Virus record (IMG/VR): IMGVR_UViG_2706795801_000001
Location: 32,001 to 96,000 of that record
Length of the DNA: 64,000 nucleotides
Direction: 5' to 3' (one strand)
DNA from: a virus
Lineage: Duplodnaviria; Caudoviricetes
Shown: piece by piece, positions 31,933 through 62,273 of the stretch
Layout of the letters: every line of letters begins with the position of its first letter
How positions within the stretch are numbered: position 1 is the stretch's first letter
Notes under the pieces: generated by a model
The model's input: only the letters and a program-made list of their open reading frames with translations
Database searches by the model: none
What the model was told of the DNA's origin: nothing
Position numbers and translations under genes: made by a program

Positions 31933-32769
31933 CTAAATTTCAATAACACCCATCTTAACTAAGTCATTACCTGCATGTAGCATCTGTACCATCAAGAATG
32001 TGTATGGGTTTAAGTGGTAGTGTTTATACTCTTCCCAGTAATCTACGGCACCAATAAAGGAAGAAAATACATCTACAGTAACTAAATCGCTTTTCATATT
32101 ACCTAATGTCTCAATTGTCATCCAATCCTTGTAAGCGGGGACACTACCGTTATACTGAATCAAATAATACTTACCCTCCACCTCTACAGCAGAGATATAC
32201 TCAAACACTTCCGCACTACCTTTCTTACCAATCTGCATCTGAGCGTGGTGTGTCATCTTCACATCAGATGGTGGTGTGGTTTGTTTATTCGCACGAGCCT
32301 TTTGTAAGGCAGCTTTAACTTTATCTTCCGTAGACACTTCTTCAAAGTTCTCTCGGCAACTAGGTGTTAATTCAAAACCCTTCACATCACAGGATGCGTG
32401 TAATCCTCCGATATCAGGATATACACCCAAAACGGTAATGTACTCTCTCCCTTGCATACCTTCTAAAAATAGTGCACGTAGGTTCTCTGGGTGCTTGACT
32501 TTATATGACTTACCCTGTTCCCAACATGCAACTTCTACAACTTCCTCGAAGAATTGGATATCAGAAAAGAATAGTATATAACGCCCTTCATTTTTATATC
32601 CAATCACTACATAAGAATAATAATCATTTAGTTTATAAATATGTACACGTCCTTTATTTTTACTGATAGAGTGCTCAAAGATATCTTGGTTACCTTCATG
32701 ATCTGCCAAGAAACCCTCTTTATCCACAAGCTTGTATTTTTTACCTTCTTCCCATTTTAATTCTGACAT
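31933..32769 (-). CDS. Hypothetical protein with internally repeated W-E-x-G-K-x-Y-K module
   Basis: WEEGKKYKL / WEQGKSYKV repeats; GAGGAG RBS. Confidence 0.7.
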   Translation of the reverse strand: MSELKWEEGKKYKLVDKEGFLADHEGNQDIFEHSISKNKGRVHIYKLNDYYSYVVIGYKNEGRYILFFSDIQFFEEVVEVACWEQGKSYKVKHPENLRALFLEGMQGREYITVLGVYPDIGGLHASCDVKGFELTPSCRENFEEVSTEDKVKAALQKARANKQTTPPSDVKMTHHAQMQIGKKGSAEVFEYISAVEVEGKYYLIQYNGSVPAYKDWMTIETLGNMKSDLVTVDVFSSFIGAVDYWEEYKHYHLNPYTFLMVQMLHAGNDLVKMGVIEI

Positions 32770-57889: not shown

Positions 57890-60800
57890 ATGTCAGAAGA
57901 AATCACCAAGTATGTAGTGGAGGCAGAATTTGATTCCGCTAAAGCTACAAAAAAGTTGGATGAGTTTAATAAGAAATTAACGTCTTATTCCAAAGCTCAG
58001 AACAACTTTAGAAAGAATAAAATGGGTATGCAGAGGGTTCTAGATAATACCAGAAAGCATAAGATGCTAACGGATGTTGTTAAGACGCCTCAGATAGCTA
58101 AATTGAAACCTCCAACATCACCAGTTAATAGATTAGAAACACTATCAGGTAAAGAGAAGGTACTACCTAACCTATATAAGTATAGTGAGGCTTCTTTAAA
58201 ACGACAAAGTGAATACTTAGATAAGATTAAAGATAAGAAGGTGAAACTATCTTATGTTAATAATCTAAATAAACAAGAGCGAAAGGTCAAGTTAGATAAC
58301 AAAATCCCCTCAAGACAGAAGGTAGCTGTTAGTGTCAAAACTAAAACCCCTACCAAACGTTTAGAGTCTAAGACTTCCAAAGTAAAACCTGTACCAACCT
58401 TAGACAGAAAAATAAGGATACTTAGTAAGGTAAAAGATAGTAGGGTTAACGAGAAAGACCAACCCAAACCTAGTAGATTACAAACACTAAAATCTAAAGA
58501 GAAACTATACCCAAACCTATATAAGTATAGTGAAGATTCTCTTAAGCGGCAAAGTGAATACCTAGCTAAGTTAAAAGATAAGAAGGTTAAATTAGATTTC
58601 ATCGACAATCTTGACAAGGTAAAGAAGAGATTAAAATCCTTAAATAGACAAAAGACTAGGGAAGTGCCTGATAAGATTAGTAAAGTAGTGGGTTCAGATA
58701 AGAAACCTTTACAGAAAATCAATACTATCAAGGAAAAGGTGGTCAAAGTAGGTAAATCCCCTAAACAGCCTATGCTAAATGCCCATCACAAGGAACGTGA
58801 GAAGTATTTAAATAAAGAGTACAAGAACAAGGTTAACAGGGAAAGGAGTTTAAAGTCTGCACACATCTTGGCTATCAAAGAAAACATTAAGTTTGATAGG
58901 AAAGCAGCAGAAGCTAAACGAAGCGAAGCAAGTAAACCAGATGGTATGGATACTCATCTTAAACAACGTGAGAAGTATTTAGATAAACAATACAAGAAAC
59001 AGTTAAGTCGAACTAAAGAGTTAAAAGCGGCACATGTAGCTGCTATTAAACAGAATATTAAGTTTGACAGACAACGGAAGATGGCTGCTGCTAAGGTTAA
59101 ACAACCTGCTATTATGAAACCTGCTGATGCTCATGTGAAAGCTAGAGAGGCTAGTATAGTTCAAGCTAATAGAAAGGAAACTCGTAGGAAGTCTAATCTA
59201 GGAGTCGCCAAAACATCATTTGATAGGTCTGACTTAAACCTAACTCAATATACTGACGCAAGACAACTTGCAGCACAAGCAGCACTGAGGGAGTCTATAG
59301 CGCAAGCTAAGACTGCTGATGAAGTCAAGATGATAGTTGCAACAGAACATAAACGCCTAAGAGTAATGAAGCAGAATGAGCGCTCTATGGGTAAGCAGAA
59401 CTACCTGATGCAACGTATGAACGCATCCAGTAAACAGTTTACAAGTAACATGTTCTCTGCATTCGCCATAGCTGGTGCTGGTGCTGGTATTACTAGAATA
59501 GGACAAGACTTCGAAGCAGTAAATAACACCATGTTGGCAGTAAGTACTAATACGCAAGAAGCAGGATCTAACTTTAAGTTTGTTAGAGATGAAGCTTATA
59601 GGTTAGGACTAGGACTTGCAAACAGTGGTAAGAACTTTGCTAAGATGTTATCTGCCAGAGGTAATATGAGCCTAGAGGATACAAAGAAAGCCTTCACAGG
59701 TATTTCAGAAATGTCTACATTGTTGGGGTTAAGTGCAGAAGAAAGTACAAGAGCTAAAGTTTGTGGCTCCTTTTAATAGTAATGTTAAATGTAAAATCTT
59801 TTTAATTGCTGGGACACCCACTTTATGGTGGACAATCAGCAGGGACGTTAACGTAAGTTAACACCTTCAGAGACTAACCCGTTAGGGTGTAGATTCTACT
59901 TAGAATCGAAAATAAGAAATCCTTTTAGGATTAAGATATAGTCCACAGACAAACGCTTTACAACAAATAAATCATTGTTTGGCTTCATAGAAATGTGATG
60001 AATAATTAAATTTATGAATTCGGTGGATCTCCTAAATGGAAGTAGGACAATACCGAGCGAAGCCTCGAAAGAGGAACGTGTAAAGACTAACTCGTAAGAG
60101 TGTAGGGGACGATACTATATCCTCGAAGCGTAAATAACCTGAACATTAAGTTGAAGGTTAAGATATAGTCTGAACTTCTATAGTAATATAGAGCGTATAA
60201 TACGGAGTAAGTCATTGATTTACTTAACAATTTTGGATGAGTAAAGGAGTTGTATCGGCTAAATCCTTGGCCTTTTAACTAGCGATAGTTATCAATAATT
60301 CATTTAATTGCTGGAACCTCTCATATGAGACAATCAGCAGGGAAGACTACTCGTAGTAACCTCCAACGACCAACCGTTATCGGTGTAGATTCTAAGTAGA
60401 GTCGAAACAGTGAAAACCTCTAAGGAGGTTATGATATGGTCTAGCCCTATAGTGATATAGGTTATATCTAAAGACTTTGATATAGTGACTCTTAACGTAA
60501 GTCATTGATTTAACTAGAGGAATTAAAGCTTCAAATGGGTAAACTTTGCCCAGTATAAAATTATTTAATTGCGAGAAGCCTTAATGCTTGTGACAGATGA
60601 TGTATTTATGGTATCATTGTTGCAGGTGAGATGGTAATTCGCAGGGAAGACCCACCACCTCAAAAGAGGAGTGTGTTGATATTATGAAAGCTATAGAAGA
60701 ATTTCCAAATTACTTTATTGATGAAAGCGGTAATGTGTTTAATAGTAGAGGGGTTCCAATTAAATCCCAATTAAATATAGATGGTTATAGGGTAGTAAAC

Positions 60801-62273
60801 TTATATTCAAACAAAAAATATTATCATAGACGATGTGCTAGGATGGTAGGTTTGACACATCTAAAAGACACATATGAAGAAGGTTATGTAATAAATCATA
60901 AAGATTTTGACAGAACCAACGACCAAATATCAAATCTTGAATGGATAACATCCCTAGAAAATAACTTGCATTCCATAGAAGGACAACCCCACCTACACAC
61001 AAGGGGATCTAAATATGACGAAGATTTTATAAGAGGTGTTTGCCAGATGATCCAAGATAATAAAAACAATAAGTATATCATGGAACAAACCAAGGTAACA
61101 AAAGATACACTATTACACTTACGTTGTGGTGCCACTTGGACTTGGATATCTAAAGATTATATATTGACTCCTTCAAAAAGAGAATGGTGAGTAACCTCCA
61201 GAGACTAACCCTAACGGGTGTAGGCACGAGTGTGTCGAAATGGTAATCACATTTATGTGAAGATATAGTCCGATACCCAATGAAAATTGGGATATAACTC
61301 TTAACGTAAGTTATTGAAAACATTAAAGGAAGTTTTGCCCAACGCCATACAAATTATGGCAAAATCCGCCCAAGACGCAGGTCTAACATTAGATGGTACT
61401 GTAAAATCTATGATGGACTTACAGCAAAAAGGTGGTTTAATATCTGAAAAGGTATTACCTCATTTTGCTAAAAATATGTCAGAGGCTGCTCGTGCTAACG
61501 GTGGTTTAGATAAGGCTTTATTATCTAACCGTGTTGCAATGAACAGGTTCATGTTCTCTATACAAGAAGCTGCTGATATTGTATTCAAGTCTGGATTCGC
61601 TTCTGGGCTGACAGAGTTGTTCAATACAATGGCTGAATCTATTGTAGACTTAAAACCCTTATGGGAATCTTTAGGCACAATAATGGGTTCATTGTTTAGG
61701 TTAATTGCAGACGGTGTTAAATATATTACTCCACCACTTATTTCTATGGGTAATGTACTAAAATCTATTACCTCAGCTTTAGGTGACAACTACTCTTGGT
61801 TACTATTGACCTCATCTGGTGCAATGGTACTATATAGAACCATAGATAAATTAGGTGGTCTTAAGTTCTTTGCAATGAGAACACTGCCAATGGTTGGTTT
61901 ATTAGTCATGGCGTTAGACGCAATCAAGCAAGTAGCTTTTTGGGCAGAAGAGTTAGACAATTTATTATTTTCTAGAAATAAGATAGGTGTATTATATGAT
62001 CCTAGGACTGGTGTGAATACAGACTCAGTTATAGATGAATTAATACCACTATTGACCTCTATCAGTTCAATAAAAAATCAAGTCAACGCTGTGTCTTCTG
62101 GTAATATGATGGGTGGTGCTAAAGGTTTAGAGGCATTATTTAATGCAAATAATAAACCTGTTACGGTGAAAGGTAACGTATATATTGGAGAGGAAAAGGT
62201 TGGTGACATAATGGCTAACAACTCTGCAATTAAAGATACTATCCAAGCTGAAATAAAGAAAATACAAAACTAA
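57890..62273 (+). CDS. Tape measure protein, spliced from 5 exons (57890-59755, 59949-59968, 60236-60260, 60517-60540, 61329-62273; ~959 aa)
   Basis: Ligation restores ...EESTRA|TNALQQM|MSKGVVSA|EELKLQMG|EVLPNAIQIMA..., the conserved tape-measure motif. Confidence 0.9.
59756..59948 (+). mobile_element. Group I intron TMP-I1 (193 nt, no ORF, no P9)
   Basis: P1 GAGCT/GGCTC, P10 GTTTGT/ACAAAC, AATTGCTGGGA, AATCAGCAGG, GAGACTA/TAGTCC, then ACAG. Confidence 0.85.
59969..60235 (+). mobile_element. Group I intron TMP-I2 (267 nt, no ORF)
   Basis: P1 CAAAT/GTTTG, P10 TCATT/GATGA, AATTCGGTGG, AATACCGAGC, AAGACTA/TAGTCT, omega-G. Confidence 0.88.
60261..60516 (+). mobile_element. Group I intron TMP-I3 (256 nt, no ORF, apparent omega-A)
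   Basis: P1 GGCT/GGCC, P10 TCCTT/GAGGA, AATTGCTGGAA, AATCAGCAGG, ACGACCA/TGGTCT. Confidence 0.82.
60541..61328 (+). mobile_element. Group I intron TMP-I4 (788 nt) with HNH ORF in P6
   Basis: P1 TGGGT/GCCCA, P10 AACTTT/GAAGTT, AATTGCGAGAA, AATTCGCAGG, GAGACTA/TAGTCC, omega-G 61328. Confidence 0.9.
60684..61190 (+). CDS. Intron-encoded HNH homing endonuclease
   Basis: YFIDESGNV, DGYRVVNL, VINHKDFDRTNDQISNLEWITSLEN. Confidence 0.9.
   Translation: MKAIEEFPNYFIDESGNVFNSRGVPIKSQLNIDGYRVVNLYSNKKYYHRRCARMVGLTHLKDTYEEGYVINHKDFDRTNDQISNLEWITSLENNLHSIEGQPHLHTRGSKYDEDFIRGVCQMIQDNKNNKYIMEQTKVTKDTLLHLRCGATWTWISKDYILTPSKREW

Follow-up and report, generated by a model that had tools for sequence, protein, structure and literature searches.

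Very few bases of group I introns are nearly invariant. One of them is the 3′-terminal guanosine (omega-G), which occupies the guanosine site as its ligand during the second step of splicing. To our knowledge, the well-studied phage introns of the IA2 type end in this base. An engineered Tetrahymena intron has reportedly been switched to a terminal A by a G-to-A change combined with conversion of the pair G264-C311 to A-U. In the hexacoral mitochondrial ND5-717 intron, a terminal A naturally stands in place of a universally conserved G, and transcriptomes show that its exons are joined correctly (PMC8146996, PMC6545197). The 23S rRNA intron Cbu.L1917 of Coxiella burnetii is, according to the title of its report, self-splicing and 'lacks the canonical omegaG' (Raghavan et al. 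2007, J Bacteriol 189:6572; title as given in reference 29 of PMC11270868). Here, a stretch of 64,000 nucleotides of a virus of the Caudoviricetes (positions 32,001 to 96,000 of the IMG/VR record IMGVR_UViG_2706795801_000001, hereafter the window) was analyzed, and the third of four group I introns in its tape measure gene (intron 3) was found to have A60516 in place of the terminal G. Intron 3 is likely to be a working phage IA2-like group I intron in which the 3′-terminal guanosine has been replaced by adenosine.

ND5-717 and intron 3 are both natural group I introns with a terminal A instead of G. ND5-717 is an obligatory mitochondrial intron that is inherited vertically, holds genes within P8 and is back-spliced in some species, whereas intron 3 is 256 nt long, free of an open reading frame (ORF) and of the mobile type, lies in the gene for a phage virion protein, and has G-ending sisters at the same site. 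Cbu.L1917 resides in rRNA, where its junction is not constrained by a reading frame, whereas intron 3 resides in a protein-coding gene. Cbu.L1917 is also said to stand in tandem with a second intron across an exon of 34 nt, and the exons on either side of intron 3 are 24-25 nt long. In the engineered Tetrahymena intron the binding pair had to become A-U, whereas that of intron 3 is still G-C. With the phage IA2-type introns (T4 td, nrdB and sunY; Twort orf142; tape measure introns), intron 3 shares a core with P7.1 and P7.2 and a location in conserved codons of essential genes, and tandem introns with micro-exons and an HNH endonuclease in a neighboring intron are likewise common to them and this locus. 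Group I introns in tape measure genes have been described from Bacillus cereus-group prophages and Lactobacillus phage JCL1032 (PMC2504315), and tandem introns around micro-exons from Twort and Coxiella (PMC10136302). Intron 3 is an additional, well-supported member of a rare and already described class, the introns without omega-G. An earlier reading of this DNA, made from the sequence only (the sequence-only reading), had correctly named the coral ND5 introns as a precedent (PMC8146996, PMC6545197), but its account was incomplete, as the bacterial Cbu.L1917 had also been published.

The virus record that holds the window is complete (133,824 bp, with terminal repeats), and its flanks share 99.3% identity with Shewanella sp. 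phage 1/40, which came from Baltic Sea ice. Five exons and four group I introns make up the tape measure gene (57890-62273); its homologues are matched by PF20155 (TMP_3). The junctions of all four introns were derived from P1/P10 pairing and the reading frame, independently of the sequence-only reading. The features at intron 3 are as follows (G001 and L018 are related sequences).

60236-60260, + strand: micro-exon 3, 25 nt, ending in GCT; its last base, T60260, is the U of the P1 U.G pair.
60261-60516, + strand: group I intron 3, 256 nt, without an ORF, with P7.1 and P7.2 and a terminal A (from RF00028, structure and junctions).
60264-60272, + strand: internal guide sequence; 60267-60272 pairs with 60257-60262 (P1), and 60264-60268 pairs with 60517-60521 (P10).
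60366-60372, + strand: P7 5′ strand, with G60368 in the G-binding pair and C60367 bulged.
60437-60444, + strand: P7 3′ strand (60437-60442) followed by A60443 and G60444, for which U60515 and C60514, respectively, are potential pairing partners.
60505-60516, + strand: 3′ tail of intron 3, with A60516 as the terminal (omega) base; identical in G001 and L018.
60517-60540, + strand: micro-exon 4, 24 nt, encoding EELKLQMG, a peptide identical in intron-less homologues.

The region 60505-60540 is thus made up of a 12-nt intron tail ending in A60516 and the 24-nt exon 60517-60540. Joining of GCT to G60517 gave an open protein of 959 aa, and the five exons joined together encode these 959 aa without an internal stop. 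When G60517 was taken as omega and GCT was joined to A60518, the product read GCT AGG AAT TAA and the protein stopped after ...VVSARN at 639 residues. The sequence-only reading had placed the start of exon 4 at G60517 and the last intron base at A60516, and had foreseen this stop; the independent derivation arrived at the same junction, and the stop was reproduced by the joining. The A-ending junction reads ATNALQQMMSKGVVSAEELKLQMGEVLPNAI, letter for letter the sequence of the intron-less homologue L007 from an unrelated viral contig, and the GCT/GAG product agrees with the continuous SAEEL coding stretch of phage 1/40. L037 and L039, two distant tape measure genes without introns, also contain the uninterrupted 16-mer across the junction. 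Among 67 aligned homologues, all 62 uninterrupted sequences had E at the first Glu of AEEL, and the only two K at this position belonged to truncated ORFs running into an intron at the same site. The base at -1 of the intron-3 site was T (GCT) in six of six intron-bearing alleles and A in five of five intron-less alleles; U at -1 tracks the presence of the intron, as a 5′ splice site would, and is therefore tied to the intron. T60260 is unlike A60516, and A60261 is unlike G60517, so that the insertion can slide in neither direction and is fixed without ambiguity as 60261-60516.

The core of intron 3 was matched by Rfam RF00028 at 60250-60462 with 69.2 bits (gathering score, 50; E 1.8e-15). In P1, T60260 forms a U.G wobble with G60269, a pair that is invariant in three homologues; such a wobble specifies the 5′ splice site (PMC10020454). 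P10, as read from the sequence, comprises 5 bp (60517-60521 with 60264-60268), has a G.U pair at +1 and is contiguous with P1, and its register is that of introns 2 and 4, in line with the sequence-only reading, which had found the P10 register shared with the other tape measure introns. On the 5′ side of the junction, C60514-G60444 and U60515-A60443 would form a P9.0, or P7 extension, of 2 bp that fits only if A60516 is the terminal base. This putative helix was deduced from the sequence and the Tetrahymena P7 extension, and the P7 layout was drawn by analogy with Tetrahymena C262/A263/G264 (PMC10020454); in Tetrahymena, the P7 extension stacks on the guanosine site (PMC10020454). With G60517 as omega, P10 is only 3 bp long and P9.0 is gone. 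P1, P10, P9.0 and the DNA comparison are four independent markers that agree on the predicted splice sites of intron 3.

Three other placements of the junctions were considered. A shift by -1, with the cut after C60259 and the end at U60515, is in frame and gives Ala-Glu, but it was rejected, as two non-canonical sites are needed. G acceptors further upstream in the tail were rejected as well, with stops found in every frame through 60490-60516. A shift of both junctions by +1, in which the 5′ cut falls after A60261 and G60517 is the terminal G, would yield the in-frame sequence GCU AAG GAA (SAKEL) and retain a canonical last base. The reading frame of this join likewise stays open for 959 aa, A60261 pairs with U60268 within an extension of P1, and the register permits a contiguous P10 of 4 bp (60518-60521 with 60264-60267). 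It would, however, require 5′ cleavage behind an A-U pair instead of behind the U.G wobble (PMC10020454), and P9.0 is lost. It also stands against the distribution of U at -1, present in six of six intron-bearing and none of five intron-less alleles, and against the uninterrupted homologues, none of the 62 of which has Lys at this position; furthermore, G-ending homologues with the same P1 yield Glu by canonical junctions. The +1 register is accordingly regarded as very improbable.

In the guanosine site, P7 consists of A60366-U60442, the bulged C60367, G60368-C60441, A-U, C-G, C60371-G60438 and A-U. The G-binding pair G60368-C60441 is intact, as the sequence-only reading had stated. P7.1 (60373-60384) and P7.2 (60388-60403) lie between P7 and P3′ and both contain covarying pairs; by the presence of these two helices in the predicted fold, intron 3 is a member of the phage IA2-like subgroup. 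The sequence-only reading had further drawn attention to a compensatory change from U-A to C-G in P7. The change itself was borne out, as C60371-G60438 replaces the U-A of the other tape measure introns and of the homologue L023, but a link to the terminal A was not, since L029, a homologue ending in G, shares this C-G pair. The idea that the pair is an adaptation to adenine was rejected on its location as well, outside the four base-triple layers of the guanosine site (PMC10020454). No feature of the core of intron 3 seems fitted to adenine.

The same 3′ end of intron 3 was detected by a pattern scan in G001 (IMG/VR UViG 3300033997_000035, 128 kb), which is a different virus. Exon 1 of its tape measure gene shows 79% protein identity to that of the window, and its introns occupy the same four sites and a fifth. 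Intron 3 of G001 is 84% identical to the window copy, while the last 24 intron bases and the exon start are identical. Across intron 3, the sequence of a metagenome contig of 1.2 kb, Ga0247725_1027706, does not differ from that of G001. These matches bear on the simplest way to dismiss the terminal A, namely that a sequencing or assembly error removed a further G in front of GAGGAA. Only the rarity of a terminal A speaks for such an error, and the occurrence of the same 24 intron bases and exon start in a different virus and in a separate contig leaves it a practically negligible probability. The terminal A has been kept in two intron lineages with 41 differences between them, as in the known introns that lack omega-G.

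A scan of viral contigs with a 16-nt P7 motif returned one true relative and four chance matches, and a scan with a 20-nt motif returned a single metagenome contig, which differs little from G001. In prokaryote genomes, two core-motif scans gave no match, and in a search of a phage collection for close relatives phage 1/40, which is without introns 3 and 4, was the only match.

Three more distant homologues at the same site (L023/L025, L020 and L029) end in G directly 5′ of GAG or GAA. The guide sequence of L023/L025 is identical to that of intron 3 in the window, and the tail of L023 is one base shorter; L020 was recovered through a truncated ORF ending in VVSAK, and L029 was recovered by nhmmer (E 1.6e-31). 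In L029 and L020, the terminal G stands 15 nt after a shared ACGTAAG motif, the exact place of the A in the window. The simplest history would be that the terminal A arose by a G-to-A substitution with the length unchanged. In a hand tally, all other introns delimited in these tape measure loci (about 20) ended in G.

To examine selection on the fold, a secondary structure of 71 pairs was drawn, comprising P1 to P9.2 with P7.1, P7.2 and the P3/P7 pseudoknot, and was scored on three sequences. In the drawn structure, 97.6% of the cells were paired and 15 pairs were changed on both sides, which was equaled by none of 500 shuffles; when the partners were slid by 1-3 columns, pairing fell to 31-45%. 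Between the two A-ending copies, 41 aligned differences were counted and all helices were kept, with eight fully compensatory pair changes located in P2, P5, P6a (two), P7.1, P7.2, P9 and P9.1. The ribozyme fold has thus been maintained by selection since the A arose, which is hard to account for unless intron 3 still has to splice.

The fold also bears on the possibility that intron 3 is crippled, in that the A would block ligation, the transcripts would be mostly unspliced or joined at G60517, and the full-length protein would be rare or absent; the intron would then be a decaying element, or one that cannot splice at all without the aid of a protein or of the neighboring intron. Laboratory G-to-A changes at the terminal position are said to impair the second step, the G-C binding pair is unchanged, and use of the adjacent G60517 gives a stop. 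On the other hand, the A is still in place after 16% divergence, during which the eight compensatory changes kept the fold, and the downstream exons are intact and conserved. The exact in-frame junctions of the other three introns would be pointless if the protein stopped at intron 3, and a tailed phage cannot do without its tape measure gene. Loss of function is for these reasons considered unlikely.

If intron 3 is a working intron, as favored here, an external guanosine would attack after U60260 at the U.G pair of P1 in the first step, and the freed 5′ exon would attack the bond between A60516 and G60517 in the second, so that GCU is joined to GAG and the invariant SAEEL is restored. Adenine is expected to fit badly on the unchanged G60368-C60441 pair, and the 3′ site would consequently be set mainly by the helices that bracket it, P9.0 on the 5′ side and the 5-bp P10 on the 3′ side; the A would be positioned mainly by these two helices rather than by base-specific recognition. 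Exon ligation would probably be slower than in the G-ending relatives, and some products may use G60517 and run into the stop. The sequence-only reading had likewise supposed a second step that may be slow or need help, and a tape measure protein truncated by mis-splicing at G60517, which is a reasonable conjecture. A few copies of the tape measure protein suffice for a virion, so that a modest splicing yield could be tolerable.

Several points weigh against a working intron with a terminal A. The G-binding pair is a normal G-C pair, and the core offers no explanation for the acceptance of adenine. In Tetrahymena, the terminal G-to-A change reportedly impairs exon ligation strongly unless an A-U pair takes the place of the G-C pair as well. 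G60517 lies directly downstream as a potential competitor. P9.0 is not evident in the G-ending relatives, and its role in intron 3 is deduced. Splicing at A60516 itself is inferred from the DNA.

The terminal A might also be put to use. A weak 3′ site beside a competing G could set a fixed ratio of products, a programmed alternative splicing at the level of the ribozyme, although this is considered quite improbable. In that event two products would be made, the full-length protein (GCU/GAG) and a form of 639 aa ending in ...VVSARN (GCU/AGG), by a logic comparable to that of the programmed frameshift of tail chaperones, and tail production in this phage, apparently one from sea ice, could come to hinge on temperature or on some factor of the phage or the host.

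The remaining features of the tape measure gene are listed below.

57890-59755, + strand: exon 1, ending in ...STRA (from the ORF and junction derivation).
59756-59948, + strand: group I intron 1, 193 nt, terminal G (Rfam RF00028, 58.2 bits, and derived junctions).
59949-59968, + strand: micro-exon 2, 20 nt, in agreement with TNALQQM of an intron-less homologue.
59969-60235, + strand: group I intron 2, 267 nt, terminal G (Rfam RF00028, 78.4 bits, and derived junctions).
60541-61328, + strand: group I intron 4, 788 nt, terminal G, with an HNH ORF inside (derived junctions).
60684-61190: HNH endonuclease ORF in intron 4 (PF13392, HNH_3, E 1.3e-7).
61329-62273, + strand: exon 5, encoding the C-terminal 314 aa and the stop codon.

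Three of the four tape measure introns were detected by Rfam RF00028, with 58-78 bits. Intron 4 was not called by RF00028 at the gathering score, and the HNH ORF sits in its core; its P1, P10 and P7 and the terminal G were readily seen in the sequence. At its 3′ end (59939-59948), intron 1 has just four bases (ACAG) on the 3′ side of the P7 3′ strand and hence no P9 domain, and the same P9-less intron 1 was found in phage 1/40, G001, L025 and L026. Another strong group I intron match (89.6 bits) was located at 1106-1402 of L020, between two called genes about 2.6 kb upstream of the start of the tape measure gene.

Introns are concentrated in the segment of about 100 nt encoding the conserved tape measure motif RATNALQQMMSKGVVSAEELKLQMGEVLPNAIQ, a hot spot with at least seven insertion sites across the relatives, up to five introns per gene, and micro-exons as short as 7-8 nt (L025, L026, L020). 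The hot spot lies within 59740-61350 in the window, 2860-4430 in L001 (the phage 1/40 deposit), 4850-6620 in L027, 4845-6385 in L025, 1529-3300 in L026 and 5180-6260 in L020. Intron content differs between the window (introns 3 and 4, 60261-61328) and L001 (3361-4428) despite their 99.3% identical flanks: phage 1/40 has a single, different HNH-bearing intron, whose insertion point lies 8 nt 3′ of the intron-3 site. The intervening 24-27 exon bases show six synonymous differences, as co-conversion in homing would give. A motif of about 16 nt, GTAAGTCATTGATTTA, and its variants were found in the 3′ tails of introns 2, 3 and 4 (60203-60225, 60493-60512 and 61301-61320, respectively), and a motif of this type is also present at the 5′ end of the 1/40-type intron (L001 3369-3390). 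The intron 3 copies, otherwise 84% identical, show 100% conservation of this motif. The motif may be a protein-binding or endonuclease-recognition element.

In the deposit of phage 1/40 (NC_025470), the tape measure gene is split in two (L001 991-2877 and 4423-5373), the halves are labeled 'tail length tape measure protein' and 'hypothetical protein', and the introns are unannotated. For annotation in general, splice-site finders that demand a terminal G would misplace the junction of intron 3.

Intron 3 would be unusually easy to test, being small, ORF-less and located in an essential gene in which a wrong junction gives a stop. The G-ending sisters at the same site, with L029 and L020 at an equal distance from the motif, provide a natural comparison, and the two diverged A-ending copies reveal which other positions have stayed fixed. 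Intron 3 could show how P9.0 and P10 substitute for the recognition of guanine, and how much splicing efficiency a phage can forgo in a structural gene whose product is needed in low copy.

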